NCBI GenBank assembly: GCA_016186955.1
Contig: JACPKP010000007.1
Span: 1,962-65,961 of the forward strand
Source of the DNA: Candidatus Daviesbacteria bacterium
Lineage (GTDB): Bacteria > Patescibacteriota > Microgenomatia > Daviesbacterales > UBA10151
DNA length: 64,000 nucleotides
Reading direction: 5' to 3'
Shown: positions 5,481 through 49,458 of the stretch, piece after piece
Layout of the letters: each line of letters opens with the position of its first letter
Position numbering within the stretch: the first letter of the stretch is position 1
Notes under the pieces: generated by a model
The model's database searches: none
What the model saw: the letters and a program-made list of their open reading frames with translations, nothing else
Told to the model about the DNA's origin: nothing
Translations under genes and position numbers: made by a program

Positions 5481-6902
<1,422 letters not shown>

Positions 6903-9170: not shown

Positions 9171-12100
9171 ATGTTTGAAAAAAACATTATCCAAAAAGGC
9201 CTGTCTATCCGGCAGGCAGGCATAGCCCATCTGATGCTGCTAATTGCTGTGGTAGGGCTGGTGGCATTCCTGCTCATCTCCAACACTTTTGATTTTAAGA
9301 ATAAGATTTTCAATGCCCTGTTCCCAAAACCTGCTTCAAAAGCAGCTGAAAATTTAGATACGACTAAAATTATTTCAAATGAGCTTTTAGTAAAATTAAA
9401 ACCTGAAATAGCAAATGTTTTAAAAGGTAAAGTGGAAACTGCAGCACTTACAGAAACTGGAATAGCCTCATTTGATGAATCTTTGAAGAAAGCAAAAGTT
9501 AAGAAAATTGAGTTTGTATCTAAAAAGTCTAAAGTTAATAAAGGTAAAAGAGTTCAAAACCCTAATTTCAGCAGTGACCATGTTGATAGATGGTTTAAAT
9601 TAACTCTAGCAAACCCTCAAGAAAAGTTGTCTGTTGATGGAATTATACTGGATTCAGATCCAAAGTTAAATAACAGTCAACTTAATGCTAGTGTTCAAAG
9701 TCCATCAACATCTCGAAGCAATAGATTGTTTAACCTGAAACCTAAACCAACAAGTGAGTCGAGTTTTCAGCTAAAGGATCGTTCTATTCCCGAGCCAACA
9801 TTAGAGGCTAATAAAAATCTTGGATATGGATTATTAGCTGATTCGATGAAAGAGTTAAAGAAAAATTCTCAGATTGAAGTGGTGGAACCGAATTACATCT
9901 ATCATAAGTTCGAAGTGACCACGAATGATTTTTATTTTAATTCACCATTAAATGAACTTTGGGATTTAAAAAGAATTAATATTTCAAAAGCTTGGGATTT
10001 AACAATGGGGAGTAAGTCAACAGTGGTAGCTGTAGTTGATTCGGGTATTGATTATACACATCCTGATCTTTTGGATAATATATGGATTAATCCAGGTGAA
10101 AGTGGTGGTAAAGAGAATAATGGCATAGACGATGATAGCAACGGTTTTATAGATGATTATAGGGGATATGATTTTGTTACAATTGATCCAAGAAAAGAAG
10201 ATGTTTTAGATACTACTGATAATGATCCTATGGATGAGTTAGGGCATGGTACTCATGTTGCTGGGATAATTGGGGCTTTAGGAAATAATGATCCTGATCA
10301 TTCAATAGACACCGGCAAGCGGATGGTAGGAGTAAGCAATATTAGTTTAATGGCGGTGAAAGGATTGAACGCTAATGGTGAAGGATTAATAAGTGATTTG
10401 GGCGCAGCTATAAGGTATGTAACGGATAATGGGGCTGATGTTATAAACATGAGTTGGGGGGGAATGGGGAAAAGCCAATTTTTGGATGATCAACTTCAGT
10501 ACAGCTACAACAGGGGCGTGGTTTTGATTGCAGCTGCAGGTAATAGTGCTATTAATGCAGCTTATTTTAGTCCCGCTAGTTCGTCATATGTTATTACTGT
10601 TGCGTCCTCTAATGACCAGGATTCTTATTCCTGTTTTTCCAACTTTGGTTTCAAAATAGACCTTTCTGCTCCAGGAGGCGATTCTTCAAGTTGTGGTGGG
10701 GGCGGAAAGAACATTCTTTCCACAATTTCTAAGACTCACAGCAGTTCATTTTCCATATATGGTTGTTGTTATGCAGTTGCAGCAGGTACATCTATGGCGA
10801 CACCCCATGTTGCTGGAACTGCAGCCTTGCTTTTGACGCTTCATCCTGACTGGACTCAGGAGATGGTCAGACAAGCTTTGAGAAAAGGTAGTGATGATAT
10901 CGGGCCTCCTGGTTTTGACCTTGATACAGGATATGGCAGGTTGGATGTATTCAAAACCTTAAGTTGGCAAAAACCGTTATCAGTTAAAATAACCTATCCT
11001 ACCGAAAGTACGCTTTTTTCAACAACTAATATTCAAATTTCAGGGATAGTCAGTGGTGAAAATTTAAGCAATTGGAAACTCGAATATGCTTCTTATTATG
11101 ATCAAAATAATTGGCAGCTTTTAAATAGCGCCACCGTACCTGTGAATTACGGGCTTTTAAAAGATTGGGATATAACATCTTTGCTTGATAAGCCTTATAT
11201 TTTGAAACTTACAGCAACAGATCAGTCAGGGATAATTTATGAAGATAGGGTTGCAGTGGTAATAAATCAATTGATTTTGGATGATCCACCGCTTGCATAC
11301 CCAGATAACCGGTTTAGGGATTTTGCAGTTTATAACATAGGGCAGAAAGTAGTTATCAAAGGCACTGCAGCTCAGGCTAACTTGAAAAATTATCAGGTTA
11401 AAATTTATAAAGCCAATACATACGCAGAGATTACAAACGTCAAGATAGCCTTAACAAATGACGGATTGCAAAAGGTAAGAAACGGCATTTTAGGAACATG
11501 GGATACGAGTGGTCTTGCTCAGGATATGTATATTGTTGAACTCAGGGCTAACTTATCCGACGGAAGTTACAGCGCATTAGGTGGGACAGTATTGTTGGAT
11601 AATTTTGTTCATTCAGGTTGGCCAAAAAAGATCTTTGATTATGAAGGTAGTAATTGGTATTTACCCTCGCCATATGGTCATTTAATCACTGAAGATATAG
11701 ACGGAGACGGAAAAAAAGATCTGCTGACCGCTTATGGCGACAAAGTGGTTATTTATAATGGTGATGGAGGGGTTTTATCCGGATGGCCACAAACAGTTGA
11801 TCCATTTAATAAATTTGAATCTATTATTAAAGGGCCTACGGTTGGAGATTTAGATAATGATGGTAAACCCGAAATAGTGGCAGCTGCAAATTCTGTATCC
11901 GTCGAGACGGGCACATTTTTATTAAATGATGCTTTAATCTTGATTTGGCGTTCTGATGGGACTCTTTTTCCTGGTTGGCCAAAAAGGATATCGGGGATTA
12001 AAAATCCTTTCATAGTATTGAGTGATGTCGATGACGATGGTCAACAGGATATAGTATTAGAAAGTAGTTCTGGTGTGAATGCGGATCCTGCAAGGATTAC

Positions 12101-14012
12101 TGTTTTAAGAAAAGATGGGAGTATTCTACCGGGTTGGCCAAGAGATATAGAGCAAAGCCAGCAATTCAAATTGTTAATTGACCCCGCTGTATCGGATTTA
12201 AACGGGGATGGTAAAAAGGAAATTATTATAGCAGATGATCGGGGGCCGAGTAACTTGTATATCCTTGATTATAAAGGAGGTGTTATAAGTGGGTGGCCTA
12301 AGCCTCTAAATCCATCGTTACCTAACAACACTTCCGGAATATTGCTGTCAAACTTTGTCATAGGAGATATTGATAACGACGGCAAACCTGAAATTGTAGC
12401 GGGTAATCACAGCGGAGTTATTACCGCCTATAAAATTGACGGATCAATTGTTCTTGGTTGGCCGGTAACTGTCAATCCGTCAGGGCATATATATCCTGTG
12501 GTAATAGGAGATTTAGATAATGATGGCAAGCCGGAAATTGTTGCAGGAACAAGCAAAAACTATCTTTATGTGTTTAGGGGTGACGGCACTCTTGTTCCAG
12601 GTTGGCCAAAGAACATAAGCGTAACTTATGGAGGTTCAGGTTTTGGTTACCCGGTTTTAGCAGATACAGATGGAGATGACCTACCCGAAATAATTGTTGT
12701 GAGCAGTATGGATTTAAGAAATCCCTTTCCTTTGCATGCTTATAAATTAAACGGACAAGAAGCAAGTGGTTTTCCGAAACCTCTTTTGACAGGAGATGAT
12801 TCTCGCCATAATAATTCTCCTGTTGTGGGTGATTTTGATGGGGACGGGTTTTTAGAATTGGCATTCATTGATGGGACTTTGAGGCTAAATGTTTGGGATC
12901 TAGTTGGACCGGTTAATTCCAACCAGCCTTGGCCAATGTTCATGCATGATCCTCAAAAAACTGGAGTTTCTATCAAGACTGCGGAATCATTGATAACTTC
13001 CTGTGCCCCTGCTAAAAATACAGTAGGCATTAATGAACCCGTAATATGGTCCGCCCAGGCCAGCGGTGGTACTGGTTCCTACCAATTCAGCTGGTCAGGG
13101 GCTGACGGGCTTACCGGCGCCAGCCAATCTGTTACTAAAAGCTATGCTTCTCCAGGCATAAAGAATGCATCAGTTGCAGTTTCTTCAGGGACACAGGCAA
13201 AAACTGCAAATTGTGTGGTAACAGTAGCAGATAACATTCCGCCTGCAGTTTCAATTACATTCCCTGGCAATAACCAGACTGTACTTAGAACCTTCAATCT
13301 TACAGCTAATGCATCTGATAATGTGGCAGTGGCAGGAGTCCAGTTTAAAATGGATGGAGTAAACTTAGGTCCAGAAGATACAACTGCCCCCTATTCAGCT
13401 TCCTGGAATACCAAACTTGCTGCCAATGCAGTGCATACTTTAACTGCAGTTGCCAGGGATAGTTCTGGAAATACCACCACCAGTTCTTCTGTGACAGTCA
13501 CTGTAGATAACTCATATAACAGGGCATTTATCACAAAATCTACCTTCAATGGTAGTTTAGGAGGGTTGTCTGGCGGTGATTCAAAATGTCAGCAGGCTGT
13601 AAACTCCCTTACTTTTGGGGGCACATTTAAAGCCTGGTTGTCTGATTCAGTAACTTCTGTATCTTCGAGACTAAATCAGAGCAGTTTGTCATATAAACTT
13701 CTTAATCCAACTGCAGTAGGTGGTGGTACAATAATTGCCAATAACTGGACAGACTTAGTTGATGGGACACTGCTTGCCCCTATCAACATAGATGAAACAG
13801 GAAATACTGTTGCAGCAGGCAGAGTTGTCTGGACTAATACTAACCCTTCAGGTGGCATTGACTCCACATCCAACAACTGCAGTAACTTTTCTTCCTCCAA
13901 CTTTTCTTACAAATCAGGTATTGGTAAAAATGACCAGATAAAGAGTGGTTGGACAACAGGCGCTAACCAGTCCTGTGACCAGCAAGCCTCCCTTTATTGC
14001 TTTGAGCAATAA
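9171..14012 (+). CDS. giant secreted S8 subtilisin-like serine peptidase fused to FG-GAP beta-propeller and Ig-like domains
   Basis: N-terminal TM/signal. Catalytic triad motifs VVAVVDSGID (Asp), HGTHVAGII (His), GTSMATPHVAG (Ser). Eight DxDxDGxxE FG-GAP-like repeats alternate with (P/S)GWP motifs. The C-terminal part is Ig-like and Cys-containing. Confidence 0.8.
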   Translation: MFEKNIIQKGLSIRQAGIAHLMLLIAVVGLVAFLLISNTFDFKNKIFNALFPKPASKAAENLDTTKIISNELLVKLKPEIANVLKGKVETAALTETGIASFDESLKKAKVKKIEFVSKKSKVNKGKRVQNPNFSSDHVDRWFKLTLANPQEKLSVDGIILDSDPKLNNSQLNASVQSPSTSRSNRLFNLKPKPTSESSFQLKDRSIPEPTLEANKNLGYGLLADSMKELKKNSQIEVVEPNYIYHKFEVTTNDFYFNSPLNELWDLKRINISKAWDLTMGSKSTVVAVVDSGIDYTHPDLLDNIWINPGESGGKENNGIDDDSNGFIDDYRGYDFVTIDPRKEDVLDTTDNDPMDELGHGTHVAGIIGALGNNDPDHSIDTGKRMVGVSNISLMAVKGLNANGEGLISDLGAAIRYVTDNGADVINMSWGGMGKSQFLDDQLQYSYNRGVVLIAAAGNSAINAAYFSPASSSYVITVASSNDQDSYSCFSNFGFKIDLSAPGGDSSSCGGGGKNILSTISKTHSSSFSIYGCCYAVAAGTSMATPHVAGTAALLLTLHPDWTQEMVRQALRKGSDDIGPPGFDLDTGYGRLDVFKTLSWQKPLSVKITYPTESTLFSTTNIQISGIVSGENLSNWKLEYASYYDQNNWQLLNSATVPVNYGLLKDWDITSLLDKPYILKLTATDQSGIIYEDRVAVVINQLILDDPPLAYPDNRFRDFAVYNIGQKVVIKGTAAQANLKNYQVKIYKANTYAEITNVKIALTNDGLQKVRNGILGTWDTSGLAQDMYIVELRANLSDGSYSALGGTVLLDNFVHSGWPKKIFDYEGSNWYLPSPYGHLITEDIDGDGKKDLLTAYGDKVVIYNGDGGVLSGWPQTVDPFNKFESIIKGPTVGDLDNDGKPEIVAAANSVSVETGTFLLNDALILIWRSDGTLFPGWPKRISGIKNPFIVLSDVDDDGQQDIVLESSSGVNADPARITVLRKDGSILPGWPRDIEQSQQFKLLIDPAVSDLNGDGKKEIIIADDRGPSNLYILDYKGGVISGWPKPLNPSLPNNTSGILLSNFVIGDIDNDGKPEIVAGNHSGVITAYKIDGSIVLGWPVTVNPSGHIYPVVIGDLDNDGKPEIVAGTSKNYLYVFRGDGTLVPGWPKNISVTYGGSGFGYPVLADTDGDDLPEIIVVSSMDLRNPFPLHAYKLNGQEASGFPKPLLTGDDSRHNNSPVVGDFDGDGFLELAFIDGTLRLNVWDLVGPVNSNQPWPMFMHDPQKTGVSIKTAESLITSCAPAKNTVGINEPVIWSAQASGGTGSYQFSWSGADGLTGASQSVTKSYASPGIKNASVAVSSGTQAKTANCVVTVADNIPPAVSITFPGNNQTVLRTFNLTANASDNVAVAGVQFKMDGVNLGPEDTTAPYSASWNTKLAANAVHTLTAVARDSSGNTTTSSSVTVTVDNSYNRAFITKSTFNGSLGGLSGGDSKCQQAVNSLTFGGTFKAWLSDSVTSVSSRLNQSSLSYKLLNPTAVGGGTIIANNWTDLVDGTLLAPINIDETGNTVAAGRVVWTNTNPSGGIDSTSNNCSNFSSSNFSYKSGIGKNDQIKSGWTTGANQSCDQQASLYCFEQ

Positions 14013-14150: not shown

Positions 14151-17100
14151 ATGCAAGCCGCAAAAGCCAGCAATATTAATAATAGGCTGTATTGGGGGAA
14201 AAGAAGCTCTATAGCGGAGCTTAAAAAACTTGATCTTACCAGGCTCCAAAAACAATCCTACGAACTTTTTTTAAACTCCGGCATCGGACAGCTTTTAAAT
14301 GAAATATCACCTGTTGCAGATTTCACCGGAAAAAACTGGAGACTTGAATTCGGCGAATACTTTTTCGGTAAAAGCAGGTTTTCACCTGAGCAGTGCATGA
14401 TTAAAGGGGTTTCTTTTGATGCCCCGCTCCGGGTTAAAGTGGTCCTGACCAACCTCCAGACAAATGAAACATACAAACAGGAGGCTTTTTTGGGTGATAT
14501 CCCCCAGATGACGGAAAAAGGCACCTTTATTATTAATGGTGTTGAAAGGGTGATAGTCAACCAGATTGTCCGTTCCCCAGGGGTTTTTTTCTCAGCCATA
14601 GAAGATCCTATCACAGGCAGGAAGCTGTTTGGCGCTGAGCTGCGCCCTTCCCATGGTTCCTGGCTGGAATTTTCAATCTCCCGCTCTGATGTGTTAACAG
14701 TCAAAATCGACCGGAGAAGAAAATTTGCAGCAACCACTCTGCTTAGGGCGCTTGGGTTTACTGACGGCCAGATCAGGGATAGGTTTTCATCAGCAGACCA
14801 AAACAGCGACCACCGCTACATTGAATCAACCCTGGCCAAAGACATGACTAAAGACGAGAATGAAGCTCTGCTGGAAATCTTCCGCAAGATGAGGCCCGGC
14901 GACCCGGTAGTTTTAGAAACTGCACGGACACTTTTGGAAAATATGTTTTTTAATGCCCGCCGGTATAACCTGACCAGGGTGGGCAGGTTTAAAATCAATA
15001 AAAGGTTAGGTTTAAATATCCCCAATACACCGGAAAACTGGACCCTGACTAAAGAAGATATAGTTGAAACCCTAATATACTTGATCGGGTTAGCAAACGG
15101 TGCGGGGAAAGTTGACGATATTGACCATTTATCCAACAGGAGGGTGAGGATGGTTGGGGAGCTGGTGGCCCAGAATGCTTTTTGGGTCGGCCTGCAAAGG
15201 TTGGAGAGGGTAATCAGGGAAAGGATGAGCCTGCTTTCGGCTGACCAGGAGATTACTGCTTCGGGTCTGGTCAACGCCAGGCCGGTTATTGCCGCCATTA
15301 ATGAATTTTTCCGCTCTTCGCAATTGTCTCAGATACTTGACCAGATCAACCCTTTATCGGAAGTGGACCATTTAAGAAGGCTTTCCGTAACAGGCACAGG
15401 GGGTATCTCCAGGGATAGGGCCAGTTTTTCCATCCGTGATATTAACCATTCCCAATACGGCAGGATTGACCCTGTCCGTTCCCCTGAAGGGCAAAATATC
15501 GGGCTGGTTACTTATCTTGCGCTCTATGCCAGGATTAATGAGTATGGTTTTTTAGAGACACCATACAGGAAGGTGGTTTTACAGGGGAACAAGCCGAAAA
15601 TCACTGATGAAATAGTTTATTTAACAGCAGACGATGAGGAGAACTTGTATATTACCGAAGCAACTATTGAAATCAGCAATGACGGATATATTACCCAAAA
15701 AAGAGTGCCTGTGCGTTTCGGCGGTAACTTTTTTGAAACAGACAACAAAATGGTTAATTTAATTGATGTATCTCCGCAGCAGATAGTCGGGACTTCGGCA
15801 TCGCTGATCCCCTTTTTGGCCCATGATGATGCCAACAGGGCCTTGATGGGTACCCATATGCAGTGCCAGGCAGTGCCCCTGCTTTTACCGCAATCCCCCA
15901 TGGTTGGGACAGGTATGGAGGAGATTATAGCCGATAATATGGCCAGGGTTGTCAGGGCAGGTTTTGATGGGACGATAACTTATGTTGATGGGGAAAAACT
16001 GGTGCTTGAGGGAAAAGGTAAAAAAGAGGAGCTTAAAATTGAGAAGTTTGTCAATTCCCCGGCTATGACCTGTTACTCCCAACGCCCGGCTGTTTTTTTG
16101 GGCCAAAAGGTCAAAACAGGTGACCTGCTTATTGAGGGTGTATCAACTCAGGGAGGAGAGTTGGCTTTGGGACAAAATTTAATGATAGCATATATGAGCT
16201 ATGACGGTTTAGAATACGAAGACGCGATCATCATCTCTGATCGGCTTGTCAAAGAAGACCTTTTAACCAGTATCCATATTGAAGAATATTCCACAGATGT
16301 GGTTGAGACGAAACTCGGGCCGGATGAGGTCACAAGCGATATACCAAATGTTTCGGAAGATAACCTGGCCAACCTTGATGCCGGAGGTGTTGTCAGGATT
16401 GGCGCAGAGGTGGGCCCGGGGGATATATTAGTCGGTAAAGTCCAGCCTAAAGGTGAAACTGAGCTGACTGCAGAGGAGAGGTTGCTGCGGGCAATATTCG
16501 GGGAAAAAGCCAAAGAAGTCAGGGATACATCTTTGAGGATGCCCCATGGTGAAAAAGGCATTGTTATCGGGATACAGATCTTATCCAGGGAGGCAGGGGA
16601 TGATTTGGGGGCAGGGGTGCTGCAGAGGATTAAAGTTAAAGTTGCCCAGTATAGGAAAGTTTCCGCAGGTGACAAATTAGCAGGCAGGCATGGCAATAAA
16701 GGGGTTATTTCTAAAGTAGTGCCTGAGTATGATATGCCGCGTCTTGAAGACGGCACCCCGGTTGATATTATTATCCGCCCGGCAGCTATTTTAAACAGGA
16801 TGAATTTGGGGCAGCTTTTGGAAGCGCATTTTGGTTTTGCTGCCAAAAAACTGGGTTATAAAATCGCTGCGCCGGTATTTGAAAAAATTCCCGAGGAGAT
16901 ACTCACAGAAGAGCTCAAAAAAGCAAAACTTCCTGTTTCAGGCAAAAGCCGCCTGATTGACGGAAGAACAGGGGATTACTTCTACCAAGACGTGACTGTG
17001 GGGTATGCATATTTCCTGAAATTGATACATATGGTTGAGGATAAAACCCACGCACGCTCTACCGGTCCTTATTCCCTGGTTACACAACAGCCTTTAGGCG

Positions 17101-23643: not shown

Positions 23644-23652
23644 ACCGCGTTA

Positions 23653-23719
23653 GGCACAAAAGGCGTCCCCTTTTGAGGCTAAATTAATTTATACCCCCTT
23701 GTTTTAACTGTAACTATTT
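23653..23719. repeat. Y-repeat copy 1: 67-nt exact duplicate of the 3' end of the regulator gene (24481..25785)
   Basis: Identical to 24457-24523. Its reverse complement encodes EIVTVKTRGYKLI*. Confidence 0.7.
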
Positions 23720-23723
23720 TTAA

Positions 23724-23749
23724 AATCCCACCCCCTGGGTGGTCCTGAG
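23724..23749. repeat. X-repeat copy 1 (variant, CCCACC-CCCT-GGGTGG hairpin)
   Basis: AAAATCCCACCCCCTGGGTGGTCCTGAG. Confidence 0.5.
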
Positions 23750-24449
23750 TATAGGTTTCCTTTCATCGAAAAGTTGCGGGCACAACAATTATAAGATATC
23801 ATTCTTGTTTATGGAGAGAATCAGTGTGCAGGAAGCAGGGTTAGAAGGTTTACCCAGGATTAGGGGACATCATCTAAATAAACTGAAAGAGCTCTATGTT
23901 TTTATGAATACTAAAAGGGAATCTTTATCCGAATCAGGATATCAAGGTTCTTTGTCAGGAGAAATGGAAGCTTTAATCAAATTTTTTATTCAGGAACATA
24001 GCAGCGATTTGTTGACATTTGTAGATCCTGCAACCCGTACTTTTGGTTTATCTCAAGAGTGGATGATGAGTTATATAAACGATACAATTGGAGGTATTGA
24101 AGCCGAGAAAGTTAAAATATACAATCAAAAAACATATGAAGCGATTGTAAAATATATTTCATATCCGGCAAGCCAACAAGTTCTATTGACAGTTACCCCG
24201 GATTTTATTTGCAGATTATGTTTAGTGGGAACACATTGTTTAAAAAGCTCAAAATTGATGCCACTTGATTATAGAGAAATCAGAGAATTTTCAAAGTTCC
24301 AAATAAACAGGAGAAGGGATATGCAAATTTATACGGAGGAATTTAAATTTAGCGATCGCCTGAAGCCATTAATCACTAAAGTAGTGTTAACCACCTTTGG
24401 AGATATTAGGTTTTACTTATCTTTTGGTGGAATCCCACCCCCGGGTTAG
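23739..24449 (+). CDS. hypothetical protein on a repeat-flanked cassette
   Basis: ORF bracketed by X/Y repeats. The true start may be MERISVQ at 23811. No recognisable domain. Confidence 0.4.
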   Translation: MVLSIGFLSSKSCGHNNYKISFLFMERISVQEAGLEGLPRIRGHHLNKLKELYVFMNTKRESLSESGYQGSLSGEMEALIKFFIQEHSSDLLTFVDPATRTFGLSQEWMMSYINDTIGGIEAEKVKIYNQKTYEAIVKYISYPASQQVLLTVTPDFICRLCLVGTHCLKSSKLMPLDYREIREFSKFQINRRRDMQIYTEEFKFSDRLKPLITKVVLTTFGDIRFYLSFGGIPPPG

Positions 24450-24523
24450 TCCTAGGCACAAAAGGCGTCCCCTTTTGAGGCTAAATTAATTTATACCCCC
24501 TTGTTTTAACTGTAACTATTTCA
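24431..24523. repeat. X-repeat copy 2 plus Y-repeat copy 2 (native 3' end of the regulator gene)
   Basis: AATCCCACCCCCGGGTTAGTCCTAGG followed by the 67-nt Y sequence. Confidence 0.7.
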
Positions 24524-32850: not shown

Positions 32851-32991
32851 TTGGTATAAGCCCAGCTTTGGAAGCTGGATTTTAATGGGTTGGTACCCAT
32901 GTCATTTCGATACGCAAGTGAGAAATCTTATATAGAAATTAGATTGCCACGTCGCTCGTAAACTCACTCCTCGCAATGACAAAGGAAACAT

Positions 32992-34234: not shown

Positions 34235-34501
34235 ATGCCTGAAATTGAAATTACCGAAGACAAGAGAAAAGATTTACGCAGTTGGGCTGATGGAGCTGGG
34301 AAGCGTTTAAAGAACATTGATCCAAACGGAGGAAGCTTAATATGGGACATTGCCGGCGAGCCGTTTGTCATGCATACAAGGCTTCTGGCGCTGTATACTA
34401 GCGGCCGCTCTTTTGACTGTTGGGCAGAGAGGTATTTTGTGCTTTGCAGCGATAAACATGCTGAGACCCTTGAGCAAGCAGGTATTATTGAGTTAGAGTA
34501 G
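34235..34501 (+). CDS. hypothetical protein inserted between tuf and rpsJ
   Basis: ORF with an SD-like AGAGAGGAAAG upstream; no known motif. Confidence 0.35.
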   Translation: MPEIEITEDKRKDLRSWADGAGKRLKNIDPNGGSLIWDIAGEPFVMHTRLLALYTSGRSFDCWAERYFVLCSDKHAETLEQAGIIELE

Positions 34502-34883: not shown

Positions 34884-35189
34884 ATGGTAGAGACAGAATA
34901 TCGCGACCCTATAGATACAGAATATAACAGGTATTTAGACAGTCCTTCTAAGAAGCTTTGGGATGATGTTGATATAGAGGTAAAAAAACTTTTATATTTT
35001 GCCGAAATGACCTCAGGTATGACATCCTTGGAAAGAACGGTTTATCTGTTGAGGTTTGAAGTTAGAAATATTATCAATAAAAGATACTCACGAAGAGAAG
35101 TGGGAGAGTTAATAGAAAAATCCCCCAGGACTGTACAAAGATTGGAAAAGAGTGCCATGGCCAAAATTGCATCCGGATTTGGCGCCTGA
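34884..35189 (+). CDS. stand-alone sigma-70 region-4-like HTH protein
   Basis: LERTVYLLRFEV...YSRREVGELIEKSPRTVQRLEKSAMAKI closely fits the sigma-70 region 4 pattern. Confidence 0.5.
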   Translation: MVETEYRDPIDTEYNRYLDSPSKKLWDDVDIEVKKLLYFAEMTSGMTSLERTVYLLRFEVRNIINKRYSRREVGELIEKSPRTVQRLEKSAMAKIASGFGA

Positions 35190-35526: not shown

Positions 35527-36324
35527 ATGATCCAGACATTACTGGGCACTAAAAAATTTATGACTTCAACTTATGATTCCCGCGGCAGGCGGGTGGGTGC
35601 AACAGTGGTTGAAATGAACCCGAATATGGTCACGCAAATTAAAGATAAGGAAGGGAAAGACGGATACGATGCTGTGCAATTGGGTTATGGAACTAAAAAG
35701 AGCGTAAAAAAACCCCAGATTGGTCATGCAAAAAAAGCCGGAGTTGAGGGTAAGATCAGGTGGATGCGTGAAGTTAGGGCTAGCGAGACTGTAAAACCTG
35801 GCGACCAGATCAGTTTGGGCCAGGTTTTTTCTGTTGGTGATGCAGTTAAAATAACAGGGGTAAGCAAGGGTAAAGGGTTTCAGGGTGGAGTCAGAAGGCA
35901 TGGATTCCATGGAGGGCCAAAAACCCATGGCCAATCAGACCGCCACCGGGCGCCAGGTTCCATCGGGGCCGGTACAACTCCGGGCCGGGTTTACAAGGGT
36001 AAAAGAATGGCAGGGCATATGGGAGTGGAGAGGGTGAGTTATAAAGGTTTGGAGGTTGTCAAAGTGGATAAACAAAACAACCTGTTGACTATCAAAGGCG
36101 GTGTGCCTGGTCCGGCAGGAGGATTTGTAATAGTTGAAAAACAAGGACGGATAAAAGGTTATACGCCACCACCTGAGGAAAAACCTGAAGAGGAAGAATT
36201 AGAGTCAAGTGACAACACCTCGGAGGTGAAGTCAGAAGAGCCAAAAGTTGAAGCAACAGAAGAGGTTGAATCTACTGAAAGTTCCGATGAGGTAAAGGAG
36301 GAAACAGGAAATGGCAGTAATTAA
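35527..36324 (+). CDS. rplC: 50S ribosomal protein L3 with acidic C-terminal tail
   Basis: L3 core (GVSKGKGFQGGVRRHGF); about 50 aa of Glu/Ser-rich extension. Confidence 0.9.
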   Translation: MIQTLLGTKKFMTSTYDSRGRRVGATVVEMNPNMVTQIKDKEGKDGYDAVQLGYGTKKSVKKPQIGHAKKAGVEGKIRWMREVRASETVKPGDQISLGQVFSVGDAVKITGVSKGKGFQGGVRRHGFHGGPKTHGQSDRHRAPGSIGAGTTPGRVYKGKRMAGHMGVERVSYKGLEVVKVDKQNNLLTIKGGVPGPAGGFVIVEKQGRIKGYTPPPEEKPEEEELESSDNTSEVKSEEPKVEATEEVESTESSDEVKEETGNGSN

Positions 36325-37180
36325 GTCAAAAGTCAAAAGCCCGTCTGCCGGACGGGCAGGTCAAAAGTCAAAAGTATCAAGAAAAGATTCTGTCGCCCCG
36401 AGTAACTCGGGGATCCAGAATGACAAAAAACCAAAAAAGACTAAAAAAGTTGCAGGAGTAAATAAGATTGCCACGTCCTCCGAAAAGGTTAAAAAACCTA
36501 TAGTTAAAACTAAGACAACATCAAATTTGTCAATTCCTGTTTATTCTCTGGCAGGCAGCAAGACCGCAGCAAGTTTGGCATTGCCTAAAGAAATTTTTGG
36601 CGCCAAAGTAAACAAAGCCTTGCTTGCCCAGGCGATGAGGGTTTACCTTAATAATCAGAAAAGCCATTGGTCAAATACCAAAACCCGTGGTGAAGTAAAA
36701 GGGTCAACCAGGAAAATTTTTAAACAAAAAGGCACCGGCAGGGCAAGACATGGGGCAATCAGGGCCCCAATTTTTGTGGGCGGGGGGATTGCTTTGGGGC
36801 CAAAAAACCGGAAGGTAGTTTTGGATCTGCCCGCAAAAATGAAAAATGCGGCGCTGGTTTCAGCCTTAGCACAAAAAGCAGATGAGAAGCAGGTTTTAGG
36901 GATCAGCGGCTTGGATAAAGCAAGCGGAAAAACCAAAGAGATGATAGGCTTAGTCACAAGAGTCCAGAGTCAAGAGTCCAGTAAAAAAAGTATTTTGATT
37001 GTGGTGGGGGAGAAGATAGAAAATGCTGCTAGGGCTGTGAGAAATATTACAGGGGTAGATTTACTGCAATTTGACCAGATTAATGCTTATGAAGTAATTA
37101 AACACCAAAGCCTGGTTTTAACAAAGGAAGCTGTTGAAAAATTGCAGGGAAGACTATTGGGTAAAAAGGAGGCTAAATAA
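36311..37180 (+). CDS. rplD: 50S ribosomal protein L4 with ~80-aa Lys-rich N-terminal extension
   Basis: L4 core from about IPVYSLAG. The N-terminal extension contains the palindromic element (36324-36374) in-frame. Confidence 0.9.
   Translation: MAVIKSKVKSPSAGRAGQKSKVSRKDSVAPSNSGIQNDKKPKKTKKVAGVNKIATSSEKVKKPIVKTKTTSNLSIPVYSLAGSKTAASLALPKEIFGAKVNKALLAQAMRVYLNNQKSHWSNTKTRGEVKGSTRKIFKQKGTGRARHGAIRAPIFVGGGIALGPKNRKVVLDLPAKMKNAALVSALAQKADEKQVLGISGLDKASGKTKEMIGLVTRVQSQESSKKSILIVVGEKIENAARAVRNITGVDLLQFDQINAYEVIKHQSLVLTKEAVEKLQGRLLGKKEAK
36324..36374. repeat. GTCAAAA(x2)-GCCCGTCTGCCGGACGGGCAGG-GTCAAAA(x2) palindromic element, in-frame in rplD
   Basis: Encodes KSKVKSPSAGRAGQKSKV; family members at 37599, 38199, 47643, 44466 and 49419. 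Confidence 0.75.
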
Positions 37181-37182
37181 AA

Positions 37183-37692
37183 ATGACAGCTGTTATATTA
37201 AAACCGTTGGTTACGGAAAAATCAATGTCGCTTGTCAAATCAGGAATGTTTACATTCCTGGTGGATAAAAACGCCACCAAAAGTCAGATTGGGAAAGCTG
37301 TTTCCGGGAGATTTGCAGTGGATGTTTTAAGTGTCAGTACAGTGAATATGAAGGGTAAAACCAAACTGCAAAAGAGCAGAAAAGGGTATTTTCAGAAACC
37401 ATCGTTTAAAAAAGCAATAGTCCAGCTTAAAAAAGGGCAAAAAATTGCTTTGTTTGAATCAGCAGAGAAAGAAGAAGTAGAAGTGAGGACAGCAGAAGGT
37501 GAAGTAGTTGGCAAAACCACAGAAAAAAAGAGTTTATTGGGGAGGACAAAGATAAAGATCAGCAAGCTGTCTCCTGTGGAGATTGAACAAAATACAGCAG
37601 TCAAAAGCCCGCCTGCCGGACGGGCAGGTCAAAAGGCAAAAGTTAAAAGTACAAGTAAAAAATTAAAAGTAAACAAGAAAGGAGCTAAGTAA
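37183..37692 (+). CDS. rplW: 50S ribosomal protein L23 with C-terminal extension
   Basis: L23 core; the C-terminal 70 aa are Lys-rich and contain the palindromic element. Confidence 0.85.
   Translation: MTAVILKPLVTEKSMSLVKSGMFTFLVDKNATKSQIGKAVSGRFAVDVLSVSTVNMKGKTKLQKSRKGYFQKPSFKKAIVQLKKGQKIALFESAEKEEVEVRTAEGEVVGKTTEKKSLLGRTKIKISKLSPVEIEQNTAVKSPPAGRAGQKAKVKSTSKKLKVNKKGAK
37599..37645. repeat. palindromic element copy in the rplW 3' extension (GCCCGCCTGCCGGACGGGCAGG flanked by GTCAAAAG)
   Basis: Encodes VKSPPAGRAGQKAKVKS. Confidence 0.7.
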
Positions 37693-37695
37693 AAA

Positions 37696-38556
37696 ATGGC
37701 GCTAATTAGTTACAAAGAAAACACACCAACCAGAAGGTTTATGACCAAGCTCGAAAAACCAAAGAAAAACGGTAAACATCATAAATCCCTGGTCAGTATA
37801 CTGCCGAAACAAAGCGGCCGGTCGCATGGCAAAGTTACAGTCCGCCACCAGGGCGGAAGGCACAAGAGATATTACAGGTTAGTTGATTTCAAAAGGAATA
37901 AATTTGGAGTAGAAGCAGTAGTGGAAGCTTTTGAGTATGACCCAAACAGGAATGTCAATATTGCCCTGGTTAAATATGCCGATGGTGAGAGAAGATACAT
38001 CTTAGCGCCTTCAGGTTTAAAGCCGGGGGATAGAGTGATATCAGGAGAAAGGGTTGAAGTAAAGGTTGGCAATGCCATGAAACTTAAAAATATGCCTGTA
38101 GGTACAATAGTCCATAATGTGGAGTTGACACCGGGCAGAGGAGGCCAGTTTGGGCGTAGTGCAGGTACAGGGTTGACTATCCAGGCGAAAGATAGCGGCC
38201 TGCCTGCCGACCTGCCTGACGGCAGTCAGGGCAGGCAGGGGTTTGCGCACTTGAAAATGCCCTCAGGAGAGATTAGAATGGTTCCCCTGGAGGCTATGGG
38301 GACTGTTGGAAGCTTGGGTAACGAAGAATGGAAGAATGTTACTTTTGGTAAGGCTGGAAGAAAAAGGCATATGGGGATCAGGCCGACTGTCAGGGGGACA
38401 GCCCAGGATCCCCACTCACATCCGCATGGTGGAGGAGAGGGCAGGTCAGGAATCGGCAGAAAAAGCCCCATGACGGTATACGGTAAAAAGGCAGTGGGAA
38501 ATACCAGAAAAAAGAATAAATGGACAAGCAAGTATATTTTGAAAAGGAGGAAATAG
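37696..38556 (+). CDS. rplB: 50S ribosomal protein L2 with ~14-aa internal insertion
   Basis: L2 core (HGGGEGR...). The insertion LPADLPDGSQGRQG is encoded by a ~41-nt palindrome. Confidence 0.9.
   Translation: MALISYKENTPTRRFMTKLEKPKKNGKHHKSLVSILPKQSGRSHGKVTVRHQGGRHKRYYRLVDFKRNKFGVEAVVEAFEYDPNRNVNIALVKYADGERRYILAPSGLKPGDRVISGERVEVKVGNAMKLKNMPVGTIVHNVELTPGRGGQFGRSAGTGLTIQAKDSGLPADLPDGSQGRQGFAHLKMPSGEIRMVPLEAMGTVGSLGNEEWKNVTFGKAGRKRHMGIRPTVRGTAQDPHSHPHGGGEGRSGIGRKSPMTVYGKKAVGNTRKKNKWTSKYILKRRK
38199..38239. repeat. GC-rich palindrome CCTGCCTGCCGACCTGCCTGACGGCAGTCAGGGCAGGCAGG in-frame inside rplB
   Basis: Outer arms CCTGCCTGC/GCAGGCAGG; shares the CTGCCGAC core with the intergenic copies. Confidence 0.65.
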
Positions 38557-38650
38557 AGTCTAGTCGCAAGAGTCCAGAGTCAAGTGAACGTCATTGCGAG
38601 GACTCCGATGGACATCGGAGGACGAAGCAATCTAATAAAAATTAAAAATT
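38556..38650. repeat. rplB-rpsS spacer element: GTCAAGA 7-mers, TCCGATG-GA-CATCGGA palindrome, AAAATTAAAAATT before the rpsS ATG
   Basis: A 94-nt spacer where these genes are normally adjacent. Confidence 0.5.
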
Positions 38651-38941: not shown

Positions 38942-39418
38942 ATGGAGTATACAACAATACAAAAAAATATTACTACTTCGCCCAGGAAACTGAGGTTGGT
39001 GGCTGATATGGTGAGAAAAATGAGCCCAGAGCAGGCTGTAGAAATTTTGCAGTTTACCAATAAAGCGGCTGCTCAACCTTTGATCAAAGCCATCAAAACT
39101 GTTTTGGCAAACAGCAAAAAAGCTGATGTGGTTTTTAAAACCATTGAGATCAACGAAGGGCCAAAATTAAAAAGATACAGGGTGGGTACAGCCGGTAGAG
39201 GACGGGGCAGGCCGTACAGGAGAAGATGGAGCCATATAAAAATCGTTTTGATAGACGATTTAAATGTCAAAAGTCAAATGTCAAAAGTCAAAAGTACAGT
39301 TCAAAATGCAAAAGTAGAAGATAAGAAGGCAGCGTTAAAAGAAAAAGGAAGGGAGGGTAAAAAGAGTGTGCGGACTCCCGAAGTAGATCCTTCGACTCGC
39401 TACGCTCGCTCAGGATGA
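38942..39418 (+). CDS. rplV: 50S ribosomal protein L22 with C-terminal extension
   Basis: L22 core; the extension contains GTCAAAA/GTCAAAT 7-mer repeats (39266-39294). Confidence 0.9.
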   Translation: MEYTTIQKNITTSPRKLRLVADMVRKMSPEQAVEILQFTNKAAAQPLIKAIKTVLANSKKADVVFKTIEINEGPKLKRYRVGTAGRGRGRPYRRRWSHIKIVLIDDLNVKSQMSKVKSTVQNAKVEDKKAALKEKGREGKKSVRTPEVDPSTRYARSG

Positions 39419-41624: not shown

Positions 41625-41731
41625 TCGGACTGAAGCGAGAAACAATTACACTAATCCCTAATTGTTTCGAGCAAAGGAGATCGCTTGCCACAATTGTGTA
41701 ATCAATTGTGGACAAGGGAAAGGAAAACAAT
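41621..41731. repeat. intergenic element E copy 1 (GGTAATCGGACTGA...CCACAATTG-N6-CAATTGTGG...GGAAAGGAAAACAAT)
   Basis: Starts in the rplN stop codon and ends at the rplX ATG. Paralogous to 43397-43482. Contains a perfect 9-bp inverted repeat at 41689-41712. Confidence 0.65.
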
Positions 41732-42040: not shown

Positions 42041-42589
42041 ATGAAGACTTTAAAAGAAAAATATTTGGAGGAGGTGCAACCGAAAATGATGGAAGAGTTC
42101 AGTATTAAAAATGTTTTTGCAGCGCCTAAATTAAAAAAGATAGTTATCAATATGGGTCTGGCTGACGCAAAAGAGGATGCCGGTATTTTAGAAAAATCAG
42201 TGGTTAATGTTGCAGCTATTTCAGGCCAGAAGCCGGTTGTGACAAAGGCTAAAAAATCCATCGCAGCTTTTAAACTTACGAAAGGCGCTTCAATAGGGTT
42301 GATGGTAACTTTAAGGGGTGATAAGATGTATGCTTTTTTCAATAAACTTGTAAATATAGTATTGCCAAAAGTGAGGGATTTTAGGGGAGTTGCACAAACC
42401 GGCTTTGACAGCAAGGGAAATTATAATTTAGGTTTTAAGGAACTACTCATATTCCCTGAAATAAACTATAAAAATGTTGATAAACCAAGGGGGTTGCAGG
42501 TTACTATTAATACAACAGCAGAAAACAGGGAGCAGGGGAAAATGTTGCTAGAGCTGATGGGGATGCCTTTTAAGAAAGGGGACAGATAA
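42041..42589 (+). CDS. rplE: 50S ribosomal protein L5
   Basis: Typical L5. Confidence 0.9.
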   Translation: MKTLKEKYLEEVQPKMMEEFSIKNVFAAPKLKKIVINMGLADAKEDAGILEKSVVNVAAISGQKPVVTKAKKSIAAFKLTKGASIGLMVTLRGDKMYAFFNKLVNIVLPKVRDFRGVAQTGFDSKGNYNLGFKELLIFPEINYKNVDKPRGLQVTINTTAENREQGKMLLELMGMPFKKGDR

Positions 42590-42690
42590 AATTTTCAATT
42601 TAAAATTTACAATTTTCAATCAAATCTTAATTTTAAATTAAAACATTGGAAATTCATTGAAAATTAAAAACTGAAAATTAAAAATTAATT
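42588..42690. repeat. AT-rich intergenic repeat R copy 1 (AAATTTTCAATTTAAAATTTACAATTTTCAAT...AAAATTAAAAATTAATTT-ATG)
   Basis: Paralogs at 42887, 44381 and 49333. Confidence 0.7.
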
Positions 42691-42870
42691 TATGGCTAAG
42701 GTTAGTAATATAGTCAAGAAAAAAGTTAAATATGAAGTCCAAAAAGTGAACCGCTGTTTACGGTGTGGCAGGTCACGTGGTTTTATCAGACGCTTTGGTG
42801 TATGCAGAATTTGTTTTAGGGAACTTGTTTACCGCGGTTATTTACCGGGAGTAAAAAAATCATCATGGTA
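42691..42870 (+). CDS. rpsZ: 30S ribosomal protein S14 type Z (zinc-binding, 59 aa)
   Basis: [59 protein letters not shown] with a CxxC...CxxC motif. Below the 60-aa ORF-track cutoff; called by eye. Confidence 0.8.
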
Positions 42871-42886: not shown

Positions 42887-43004
42887 AGAAATTTTCAATT
42901 TAAAATTTACAATTTTCAATCAATGATTTAATGTTTAAATTTTGAAAATTAATCAAATGAAAATTCATTAAAAATTGAAAAATAAAAATTAAAAATTAAT
43001 TATT
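42887..43004. repeat. AT-rich intergenic repeat R copy 2
   Basis: Same head (GAAATTTTCAATTTAAAATTTACAATTTTCAATCAATGATTTAAT) and tail (AAAATTAAAAATTAATTATT-ATG) as copy 1. Confidence 0.7.
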
Positions 43005-43400: not shown

Positions 43401-43482
43401 TCGGACTGAGCGTAGCGAAGGAGATCGCTTGCCACAATTGTGTAACCAATTGTGGACAAGGGTAAAGAAAGGATAAAAATTT
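43397..43482. repeat. intergenic element E copy 2 (with CCACAATTG-N6-CAATTGTGG at 43432-43455)
   Basis: Starts in the rpsH stop codon and ends at the rplF ATG. Confidence 0.65.
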
Positions 43483-44380: not shown

Positions 44381-44507
44381 CAAATTTTCAAGTCACAATT
44401 TACAATTTTCAATAAATGATTTAATTTTAAATTTTAAACATTGAAAATTCATTGTAAATTGAAAACCTGTCTGCCGACAGGCAAGACTAAAAATTAAAAA
44501 TTAATTT
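44381..44507. repeat. AT-rich intergenic repeat R copy 3, carrying embedded GC hairpin CCTGTCTGCCGACAGG (44466-44481)
   Basis: Head CAAATTTTCAAGTCACAATTTACAATTTTCAAT, tail AAAATTAAAAATTAATTT-ATG (rpsE). Confidence 0.7.
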
Positions 44508-46765: not shown

Positions 46766-47313
46766 AAATTTTAATCACCGGTCCGCAGGGTTCTGGTAAA
46801 ACAACCCACGCCAAAATTGTGGCAGAAAAATTTAATTTATGTTTTATCAAAACCGGGGACTTGGTGAGGAATAAAGCTTTAGAAAATAGTGATGAAGGAA
46901 GAAAGTTGAAAGAGGCTTTGGATAAAGGTGAGTTGGCAGATGATAGGATTATTGCAAATTTAGTAGAAAATGCGTTGGTACAACAAAATTGCAAAGATAA
47001 TTTTGTAATGGATGGTTATCCCAGGCGGCTGCCCCAGCTTCAGGTTTTTGACCCTGGTTTTGATAAGGTTTTTTATTTGGACTTATCTGATGAGATGGCA
47101 GTAGAGAGGATGCTGAAAAGAAGCAGGGAGGATGATACTCCTCAATTAATTCAACAAAGGCTAATGTTGTACCATCGGGAAACTGAAAAAGCGCTAAAGT
47201 ACTATCAAACTATGGGAATTTTAATAAAAATTAATGCAGCAAGAAGTATTGGAGAAGTTGCTGGAGATATAGTGGACCATTTAAAAAGACATGGCAATAA
47301 ATACAAGGACTAA
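46762..47313 (+). CDS. adk: adenylate kinase (short form, no zinc lid)
   Basis: [15 protein letters not shown]. Confidence 0.85.
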
Positions 47314-48091
47314 GGGAGAACTGGCGCTAATGAGAAAGAGTGGGGTTATTACTGCCAGGGCGTTGGGAGAAGTCTTGAAGAATGTCCGTGAAGGTATTAG
47401 CCTGATAGAATTGGAAAAAGTTGCGGAAAACCAGGTTGTCAAGTTGGGAGGAGAACCTTCATTTAAAACCGTCCCTGGTTACAGATGGACTTCCTGCTTG
47501 ACTATCAACAATGAGGTTGTACACGGAATCCCAAGGGATATTAAGTTGAAAAATGGTGATATCTTAAGTGTTGATTTAGGCGCAGTTTTTAAAGGCTGGC
47601 ATACGGATGCTGCATGGAGTGTGGTGGTGGGAAGTCAAAAGTCAAAAGCCCGTTTGCCGAACGGGCAGGTCAAAAGTCAAAATGATGAAAAAGAGAAATT
47701 TTTAGCAGTGGGGGAAGAGGCTCTATGGAAGGGGATTGGGCAGGCAGTGGATGGTAATAGAATAGGTGATATCTCCGGGGTTATACAGGAAGTTGTGGAG
47801 AGCGCAGGTTATTCAGTTGTGCGGGCGCTGGTAGGGCATGGGGTGGGCAGGGAGCTGCATGAAGACCCCGAAGTGCCGGGATATGGTAAAAAAAGTACAG
47901 GGCTCAAACTTATTGCAGGCATGACGCTTGCGGTAGAGGTGATTTACACCAGCGGGAAACCTGATGTAGTTTTGGATCCTGATGGTTGGACTATCACTAC
48001 TGCAGATGGAAGCCTGGGTGGACTTTTTGAGATGAGTGTGGTGGTAGGTGTAAAACAAGCTGAAGCGCTGACGGATTGGAGACAAAAGTGA
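47291..48091 (+). CDS. map: methionine aminopeptidase type I with ~25-aa internal insertion
   Basis: Pita-bread fold motifs. The true start may be the internal Met at 47324. The insertion is encoded by the palindromic element (47643-47690). Confidence 0.85.
   Translation: MAINTRTKGELALMRKSGVITARALGEVLKNVREGISLIELEKVAENQVVKLGGEPSFKTVPGYRWTSCLTINNEVVHGIPRDIKLKNGDILSVDLGAVFKGWHTDAAWSVVVGSQKSKARLPNGQVKSQNDEKEKFLAVGEEALWKGIGQAVDGNRIGDISGVIQEVVESAGYSVVRALVGHGVGRELHEDPEVPGYGKKSTGLKLIAGMTLAVEVIYTSGKPDVVLDPDGWTITTADGSLGGLFEMSVVVGVKQAEALTDWRQK
47643..47690. repeat. palindromic element copy in-frame in map (GTCAAAAGTCAAAAG-CCCGTTTGCCGAACGGGCAGG-TCAAAAGTCAAAA)
   Basis: Stem bases differ from the rplD copy in a compensatory manner (GCCCGTT/AACGGGC versus GCCCGTC/GACGGGC). 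Confidence 0.75.
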
Positions 48092-49332: not shown

Positions 49333-49458
49333 TAAATTTTCAAGTCACAATTTACAATTTTCAATCAATGATTTAATTCTTAAATTTTAAACATTGAAAA
49401 TTCATTAAAAATTGAAAACCTGTCTGCCGACAGGCAAGACTGAAAATTAAAAATTATT
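49333..49458. repeat. AT-rich intergenic repeat R copy 4, carrying GC hairpin CCTGTCTGCCGACAGG (49419-49434)
   Basis: Near-identical to copy 3; tail AAAATTAAAAATTATT-ATG (rpsD). Confidence 0.7.

Follow-up and report, generated by a model that had tools for sequence, protein, structure and literature searches.

The Rickettsia palindromic elements (RPEs), of about 105-150 bp (PMC3184786, PMC10969869), insert in frame into unrelated and often essential genes, at sites that suit the fold of the protein, and are also found in intergenic regions (PMC10969869; PMC3184786, table 1). Repetitive extragenic palindromic (REP) sequences are GC-rich imperfect palindromes of 20-35 nt, present in many copies and without terminal inverted repeats or target duplications, for which a hairpin-dependent single-strand mechanism has been proposed (PMC3116915; PMC3184786). 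The small dispersed repeats (SDRs) of heterocyst-forming cyanobacteria are cited as dispersed repeats of about 20-27 nt that were proposed to be mobile (PMC2884548, PMC3116915). The element analysed here comes from a 64,000-nt stretch of Candidatus Daviesbacteria DNA (assembly GCA_016186955.1, contig JACPKP010000007.1, positions 1,962 to 65,961 of the forward strand; hereafter the window), which carries the tuf-S10-spc-alpha ribosomal protein gene cluster on its + strand. It is a GC-rich imperfect palindrome of 21-22 nt with the consensus (R)CCCGCCTGCCGGACGGGCAGG, referred to below as the core, found in rplD, rplW and map of the window and in metagenomic contigs resembling either Parcubacteria or tailed phages. 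The core is considered, with a probability of roughly 0.7, as a dispersed and very small repeated DNA element, selfish or neutral, that spreads within and between genomes.

By its size the element is closest to REP sequences and SDRs. With REPs it shares the stem-loop of a GC-rich imperfect palindrome of 20-40 nt, but REPs are extragenic by definition, whereas all three full window copies and 33 of the 35 phage-like copies lie in open reading frames (ORFs). REPs are usually arranged as inverted doublets (REPINs), whereas singletons or direct tandems (contig L086) and a few nested clusters (L096, L106) are seen here, and REPs have a GTAG-type head, absent from the core, together with a co-occurring gene for a REP-associated tyrosine transposase (RAYT). 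SDRs are reportedly (Elhai et al. 2008, Genome Res 18:1484) imperfect palindromes that are absent from related genomes and lie in some cases in tandem heptameric repeats. On these details the Nostoc SDRs are what the element most resembles, in size, hairpin, heptamer context and patchy presence; they belong, however, to another phylum and have another sequence, and the copies here are mostly in ORFs, measure exactly 21 nt and are identical in very distant lineages. A preliminary description of this DNA had likened the element to RPEs, and the likeness holds for its behaviour, namely the in-frame insertion of a palindrome into unrelated genes (here rplD, rplW, map, rplB, glycosyltransferase genes and phage structural genes). 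It does not extend to size or to a conserved peptide: the element is about 6 times smaller (conserved block of 21-23 nt), no similarity in sequence being expected, and the conserved RPE peptide has 35-50 aa in a single frame, whereas 21-22 nt give 7 aa here, in all frames and orientations. RPEs are moreover known only from Rickettsia, whereas the element occurs in bacteria of the candidate phyla radiation (CPR) and in phage-like contigs.

Other described repeats are further removed. Miniature inverted-repeat transposable elements have terminal inverted repeats and a target-site duplication, whereas the core is a single short hairpin, without duplication in either of the two filled/empty pairs presented below. 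Palindromic amphipathic repeat coding elements (PARCELs) are coding DNA with dyad symmetry, a punctate distribution and a suspected horizontal spread (PMC2996958), but they form tandem domains of 25 residues (75 nt) in surface proteins of unknown function, unlike the single 7-residue insertions in housekeeping genes observed here. Heptamers are the most abundant class of long simple repeats in many bacteria (PMC4679880; PMC4692102), and heptamer arrays (short tandemly repeated repetitive sequences, STRRs; TAACTGA) are known from cyanobacteria and Beggiatoaceae, where they are mostly intergenic (PMC4679880, PMC4692102). These resemble the flanks of the core, made of head-to-tail 7-nt units, and not the core itself; the flanking arrays differ from them in being translated (one orientation permits it), in having different units in orthologous loops and in hosting a hairpin core. 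Text searches of the literature brought up no account of elements of this kind in CPR or Patescibacteria. Tiny palindromic dispersed repeats and in-frame palindrome insertion are of an already known kind; the exact size of 7 codons, the presence in essential genes of reduced genomes, the identity across CPR superphyla and the heavy colonisation of phage-like DNA are unusual.

Three full copies of the core GCCCGYYTGCCGRACGGGCAG(G), flanked by GTCAAAA heptamers, are present in the window, all on the + strand and scoring 69-75 bits with a covariance model (cmsearch). The 22-mer GCCCGYCTGCCGGACGGGCAGG is found at 36339-36360 in rplD (ORF 36311-37180) and at 37607-37628 in rplW (37183-37692), and with 2 substitutions at 47648-47669 in map (47291-48091). 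The repeat reported by the preliminary description in the N-terminal extension of rplD and the C-terminal extension of rplW is real, as 100 dinucleotide-preserving shuffles gave 0 core matches. The first copy (GCCCGTCTGCCGGACGGGCAG, 36339-36359; 75.4 bits) is read as (S)PSAGRAG in the rplD extension and is predicted to form an RNA hairpin of -14.7 kcal/mol (z -3.7). Two GTCAAAA units precede it (36325-36338) and two follow it (36360-36373), and without the 21-nt core this part of rplD would be a 4-unit heptamer array still in register. The second copy (GCCCGCCTGCCGGACGGGCAG, 37607-37627), read as (S)PPAGRAG in the C-terminal tail of rplW, matches exactly the consensus found in other organisms; it is preceded by a single GTCAAAA (37600-37606) and followed by a degenerate heptamer run (GTCAAAA GGCAAAA GTTAAAA ...; 37628-37677) that forms the Lys-rich end of rplW. 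The third copy (GCCCGTTTGCCGAACGGGCAG, 47648-47668), which bears the compensatory pair C7T/G13A, lies within map in another frame (ARLPNGQ), between two GTCAAAA units at 47634-47647 and two at 47669-47682, so that its context peptide is KARLPNGQVK as against (K)SP(S/P)AGRAGQK in rplD and rplW. A 51-nt (17-codon) block is common to the rplD and map copies, with 2 differences.

The repeat unit had been given as about 50 nt with two GTCAAAA on each side, which describes rplD and agrees with the block that it shares with map; in rplW only one intact heptamer stands upstream and the downstream ones are degenerate. Similarly, the peptide KSKVKSP(S/P)AGRAGQK(S/A)KV attributed to both genes does not hold for rplW, whose peptide is AVKSPPAGRAGQKAKV, without the leading KSKV, and the copy in map, listed earlier as related, is a full copy with 2 substitutions read in another frame, SQKSKARLPNGQVKSQ. 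Because a strong Shine-Dalgarno sequence (AAGGAGG) lies 9 nt upstream of the rplD ATG at 36311 and the rplW tail leads directly into the ribosome-binding site of rplB, both extensions are, judging from these sequence signals, very likely translated.

The core is read as SPSAGRA in rplD and rplW, as ARLPNGQ or ARLPDGQ in map and in glycosyltransferases of other contigs, and as PACRTGR in contigs L087 and L086; it is therefore repeated DNA and not a conserved peptide, which bears out the claim that a DNA element, and not convergent Lys-rich tails, is involved, the same nucleotides being read in three frames. An ancient Lys-rich extension inherited vertically, a convergent low-complexity tail or an assembly artefact can be given almost no weight. 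Ribosomal protein tails are often Lys-rich, and lineage-specific extensions are known in CPR, where a survey of ribosomal proteins lists such lineage-specific regions as uncharacterised (PMC9297842), but identical nucleotides in different frames already refute vertical or convergent tails, as do the orthologues without the core presented below. Concerning assembly, three independent Logan assemblies made from separate sequencing runs (L001-L003) give an identical rplD copy, and two of them (L001, L002) an identical rplW copy, so that assembly error is excluded for these two copies.

None of the six frames of the core contains a stop codon, and the 21 nt correspond to 7 codons, so that insertion of the core never breaks a reading frame: each insertion adds 7 small or charged residues and keeps the frame at any codon phase. 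Nearly all copies are located in ORFs, at sites that vary in length among orthologues, such as the N- and C-terminal tails of ribosomal proteins, a loop of methionine aminopeptidase (MetAP, encoded by map), a turn of L2 (encoded by rplB), a linker of GT4 glycosyltransferases and phage tail genes. The permissiveness of these sites was judged from alignment gaps relative to solved structures and from length variation among orthologues. A hairpin with a stem of 7-8 bp (-12 to -16 kcal/mol) is predicted for the core as RNA or single-stranded DNA, and two overlapping registers are possible, GCCCGYC/GRCGGGC or CCTGCC/GGCAGG. For the CCTGCC/GGCAGG register, 98.4% of cells are paired, nine one-sided C-to-U changes keep a G.U pair and the loop positions are variable; for the other, five copies repair a C.A mismatch of the consensus, and three pairs show compensatory double changes, the map copy being among those that carry them. 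These patterns, in small numbers of related copies, are suggestive of selection on the hairpin structure. A search of protein databases with the three frame peptides concatenated gave nothing at E <= 10, the query being too short for HMMER statistics.

Presence and absence of the element were compared with about 60 other Daviesbacteria loci (S10/spc region with 10-kb flanks, 1.17 Mb in total) and with S10/spc loci of other CPR (0.29 Mb), and 0 copies of the core were found in either set. SecY relatives assign the window to Candidatus Daviesbacteria (Microgenomates, CPR), and the nearest relative by SecY (86% identical) is the metagenome-assembled genome GCA_964522265.1 (loci L004 and L093); the next closest L4 (the rplD product) is only 66% identical to that of the window, and there are therefore no strain-level relatives for comparison. 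This closest relative is without the window insert at rplB, rplW and map. In map, the element comes directly after the conserved WSVVVG, where the segment is of variable length in about 60 Daviesbacteria; the shortest orthologues have five residues at this site, and the solved Thermotoga MetAP (1o0x) shows a 14-residue alignment gap. The closest relative has at the same place 2 AAATCCG units, a different GC-rich core, counted as 21 nt, and 3 AAATCCG units. In rplB, a GC-rich nested palindrome of 42 nt (2 x 21) on the + strand (38197-38238), read as GLPADLPDGSQGRQ and belonging to the same CCTGCC...GGCAGG superfamily as the core, is present in the window only among about 55 orthologues. The comparison with L093 gives a clean 42-nt gap between flanks about 90% identical (aligned at 38193-38234, the position of the insert being ambiguous by a few nt), and solved L2 chains also have an alignment gap at this site.

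The rplW tail of the window has 29 extra aa (87 nt), second core copy included, relative to L093. Across the clade, rplD has a hypervariable N-terminal extension, and among the relatives (P0002, the L4 from L093, and the further L4 sequences P0003 and P0006) the core is absent from P0002 and P0003, which have other small repeat-derived peptides at its position. The element thus adds to the variable ribosomal protein tails of the lineage, as had been proposed, through the rplD extension and the 29-aa segment of rplW.

A scan of JGI metagenomes for the core together with GTCAAAA gave five contigs (L084-L088), in which the right-hand GTCAAAA flank was demanded by the search pattern. The core is read as ARLPDGQ in a GT4 glycosyltransferase in L084 and L088 and as PACRTGR in a second glycosyltransferase in L087; L086 has two direct tandem cores 37 nt apart in one ORF, in two frames (PACRTGR then ARLPDGQ), and in L085 the core lies in a 5' untranslated region. 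Since Candidatus Terrybacteria supplies the nearest named homologue (79%) of the L088-type glycosyltransferase found in L084, L086 and L088, the L087 gene being similar, contigs L084 and L086-L088 are probably Parcubacteria, an assignment made on a single gene; L085 was not placed. In proteins that share 77-81% identity with the L088 enzyme the site is mostly empty (…SKVHK|VKSQ…), and where it is filled the protein is longer by 7 residues.

Two filled/empty pairs, whose genes are 81-85% identical in nucleotides, give the limits of the insert. Filled L088 reads …GTTCATAAA[GCCCGCCTGCCGGACGGGCAG]GTCAAAAGTC… (core in single brackets) and empty L089 reads …GTCCATAAG|GTCAAAAGTC…, an exact difference of 21 nt without duplication. 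In another member of the family, with genes 85% identical, filled L090 (…AATCTCAAA[CCTGCCTGCCGGCGAGGCAGG]TCTTAAAAA…) and empty L091 (…AATCTCAAA|TCTAAAAAA…) also differ by 21 nt without duplication. Together with rplB versus L093, the glycosyltransferase pairs provide the clean, frame-preserving presence and absence that alignment of orthologues was expected to reveal for a DNA element. The inserted and recurring unit is considered to be the core of 21-22 nt, and not the longer unit first described, because these pairs differ by 21 nt, the map core of the closest relative measures 21 nt and the rplB insert is 2 x 21 nt; the heptamers are regarded as part of the target, and the core labelled B was found both with and without arrays. 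In a rough neighbour-joining tree without support values the filled glycosyltransferase alleles are not monophyletic, and this hints at recurrent insertion or recombination at the site.

It is very improbable that the polymorphisms are deletions, with an ancestral palindrome precisely excised by replication slippage in most lineages. Hairpins are known deletion hotspots, and the direction of change is unreadable from a single filled/empty pair. But the rplB site is empty in 55/55 other orthologues, a set that takes in other CPR phyla and every solved L2 structure; in the glycosyltransferase family filled sites are few and scattered; and an identical core in unrelated genes needs copying in any case.

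The densest set of copies was found by a scan of IMG/VR, in several contigs of one source (UViG 2820306284; L097, L098, L100, L101, L105 and L106; GC 0.40-0.43) that encode terminase, portal, sheath, tape measure, protease and endolysin. These phage-like contigs hold 35 copies in 64 kb (at most 2-3 substitutions), about 1 per 2 kb, so that further copies do exist outside the window genes. Those in ORFs (21 sense, 12 antisense) use every frame, three sense and three antisense; their flanks are unrelated and without heptamers, a single tape-measure gene contains six of them, and all the most frequent 12-mers of the contigs come from the element. An alignment of 46 copies delimits a conserved block R-CCCGCCTGCCGGACGGGCAGG-Y of 21-23 nt, outside which the sequence is random. 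Nested clusters with the variant CCTGTCTGCCGACAGG were also observed, in L096 and in L106 (11390-11460). A cyanobacterial origin of the phage-like contigs was ruled out, the HIP1 octamer GCGATCGC occurring once in 66 kb, and tblastn with their terminase gave no informative host match.

These copies bear on a reading without transposition, in which the hairpin arose once in a heptamer array and the array plus core then moved by homologous or short-homology recombination (gene conversion). GTCAAAA stands on both sides of all three window copies, rplD and map share the 51-nt block and a derived C6T change, the core-less arrays at 5819-5851 and 39262-39316 align as 'empty' sites, and in L084-L088 core A is likewise flanked by AAA...GTCAAAA, the right flank having been set by the search pattern. 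Such recombination is nevertheless unlikely as the general explanation, given the 35 phage-like copies with unrelated, non-repetitive flanks, the occurrence of core B with and without arrays, and the filled/empty pairs that differ by the 21-nt core alone. Within this genome, one of the rplD and map copies was probably derived from the other, because they share the derived C-to-T change, identical double-heptamer flanks and the 51-nt block. The copying would have taken core and array together, perhaps through short-homology recombination from one array to another, and this leaves room for array-to-array recombination as a local mode of spread.

A selected signal (an intrinsic terminator on the antisense strand, a hairpin stabilising or processing mRNA, a protein-binding site or a DNA-uptake sequence) was also considered. 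The minus strands of the three copies and of two intergenic relatives are the five best terminator-like matches, between 35.5 and 50.5 kb, each with TTTTGAC after a GC stem of 7 bp; conservation of the core between distant lineages is very strong, and one arm is enriched in C-to-U changes that leave G.U pairing intact. On the other hand other lineages do not conserve the U-tract, their tails being TTTATGAAC or random, orientation is mixed in the phage-like contigs, close relatives have the same genes without the core, and 1 copy per 2 kb in phage structural genes fits a selfish element better, all of which makes a selected signal decidedly improbable. The terminator likeness is treated as a by-product: it is the A-rich sense flanks that supply the U-tract, which elsewhere is unconserved. 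The antisense-terminator idea was downgraded for this lack of conservation and for the mixed orientation. The sequence CCGTCTGCC within the core resembles the Neisseria DNA-uptake sequence; an uptake role was rejected owing to the low density in the window and to the relatives without the sequence.

For a selfish or neutral element, the following course of events may be proposed. The core, which goes in as a discrete 21-nt unit without target-site duplication, would do so by a strand-specific and hairpin-dependent mechanism of which a single-strand reaction of the HUH/RAYT type is the leading guess; such a reaction would fit, because there is a hairpin and no duplication. It would spread within genomes and between Daviesbacteria, Parcubacteria-like bacteria and tailed-phage-like contigs, perhaps carried by phages, and purifying selection would then keep only the copies located in permissive, disordered segments. 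The core would accordingly behave like one of the smallest known mobile DNA elements, near the lower size limit. A more ambitious version, in which a frame-neutral and autonomous-looking 21-nt mobile unit is phage-borne between distant CPR phyla and forms with the translated arrays a major generator of the lineage-specific insertions and tails by which the ribosomal and housekeeping proteins of CPR bacteria stand out, is put forward as tentative and rather doubtful.

Several observations weigh against such a mobile element. No transposase, RAYT or other mobilising gene was detected among the window ORFs scanned; tblastn with an IS200 TnpA query gave no match in the approximately 1.7 Mb searched; and no RAYT or Y1 HUH family appears among the top Pfam families of the phage-like loci. 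All of these tests are shallow and weak. There are only 3 full copies in 64 kb, all inside a 12-kb stretch of one operon region, and with GTCAAAA flanking each of them array-to-array recombination could explain their spread without transposition. Single filled/empty sites cannot formally tell insertion from precise deletion of a hairpin. Lone matches in high-GC viral contigs are compatible with chance, and that the copies in phage-like contigs may show phage-carried spread into CPR bacteria is a conjecture.

Besides the full copies and the rplB insert, the window contains weaker relatives of the core. The intergenic copies mentioned by the preliminary description, like that in rplB, are related palindromes and not copies of the core: the rplB one is the different 42-nt palindrome described above, and the intergenic ones are CCTGTCTGCCGACAGG hairpins on the + strand at 44466-44481 (23.5 bits, E 0.05) and 49419-49434 (30.2 bits, E 0.002), within AT-rich composite repeats at 44382-44504 and 49334-49456. 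On the - strand, CCTGCCTGCCGGATAGACAGG (9200-9220), in a 1613-aa ORF (9171-14012), is a weak member of the superfamily with 3 substitutions from core B, its 13.9 bits being by themselves not significant. A covariance-model match at 14934-15008 sits in a conserved rpoB-like coding segment and was discarded as chance. A separate perfect hairpin, CCCCGAG-TAA-CTCGGGG (36396-36412, +), is translated within SVAPSNSGIQ in the N-terminal extension of rplD, and no second copy of it was seen in the window.

Heptamer arrays are the commonest class of tandem repeats in the window and are located in tails and loops. Arrays of period 7, 14 or 21 make up 19/35 of its tandem arrays, 306/897 of those of Daviesbacteria and 37/188 of those of other CPR. 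On the + strand, tgt (queuine tRNA-ribosyltransferase, 5496-6902) contains a GTCAAAA-type array without core (5819-5851), which the covariance model aligns (5817-5859) as the element minus exactly its 21-nt core, and a GTCAAGA array (5970-6002). The Tgt protein exceeds the span of its Pfam model by about 100 aa, and the extra segment holds both translated arrays. A GTCMAGA array at 36954-36985 (+) corresponds to an internal insertion of rplD (TRVQSQESS) that is absent from P0003 and present in a variant form in P0006, and a GTCAAAA/GTCAAAT array at 39262-39316 (+) lies in the C-terminal tail of rplV. The GTCAAAA/GTCAAGA arrays are open in the three sense frames and closed in all antisense frames, and for this reason they are always oriented with the gene (42/42). 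The same loop of map and of GT4 genes holds heptamer arrays in many species, with differing units, which suggests that array 'cassettes' turn over rapidly at fixed permissive sites. Among CPR species these units include GGGGAAA, CTGGAAA, GACAGGN, AAATCCG and AATCTAA (example in L004, 6876-6935), sometimes with another 21-nt GC-rich core in the middle. Heptamer arrays are best described as a common route to Lys/Ser-rich tails and loops in this lineage and not as a constant part of the element. A strict search of all loci for a perfect hairpin with 7-periodic DNA on both sides found the window copies only, and a relaxed one added only map of L004 and rplD of L017; the heptamer-hairpin-heptamer layout is therefore particular to this sub-lineage.

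Other repeats were noted in the same region. The spacers of the spc and alpha operons contain AT-rich composite repeats (42589-42700, 42889-43001, 44382-44504, 49334-49456) made of 7-nt units (AATTTAC, AAATTAA and similar), two of which hold the CCTGTCTGCCGACAGG hairpin and several of which give promoter-like consensus matches. A 57-nt repeat, 93% identical between 41670-41726 and 43414-43470, holds the hairpin CCACAATTG...CAATTGTGG, and its copies lie directly upstream of and overlap the starts of rplX and rplF. A small palindromic element CATTGCGAGG...GAAGCAATC occurs in the rplB-rpsS spacer (38592-38632), with an inverted relative just upstream of tuf (32942-32980), and the peptides IATS..PRNDE and SLRA.AKQS in the rplD N-termini of related species look derived from it. 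Elsewhere, a perfect 69-nt direct repeat (23651-23719 and 24453-24521) brackets an ORF of 236 aa (23739-24449) in a low-GC stretch; this ORF has no Pfam match, and a small inserted cassette is one possible reading, a recent duplication another. Within the S10 operon, small ORFs without Pfam match lie in the tuf-rpsJ spacer (34235-34501, 88 aa) and in the rpsJ-rplC spacer (34884-35189, 101 aa), the latter being called also in the independent assembly L001. In a relative, the rpsJ-rplC spacer contains a GIY-YIG ORF on the opposite strand (L094, 2092-2382), and this spacer appears to collect small genes.

At nucleotide resolution, some ribosomal protein extensions of CPR bacteria are built from probably selfish repeats, namely translated 7-nt arrays and a 21-nt palindrome. 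The core is identical in Microgenomates, probable Parcubacteria and phage-like contigs, tolerates every frame and is found in essential genes of very small genomes. With the clean filled/empty pairs, the still unsettled way in which hairpins as small as REPs or SDRs move can be tested directly, and insertions of this kind can mislead alignments, ribosomal-protein phylogenies and searches for 'novel domains' in metagenomic proteins.

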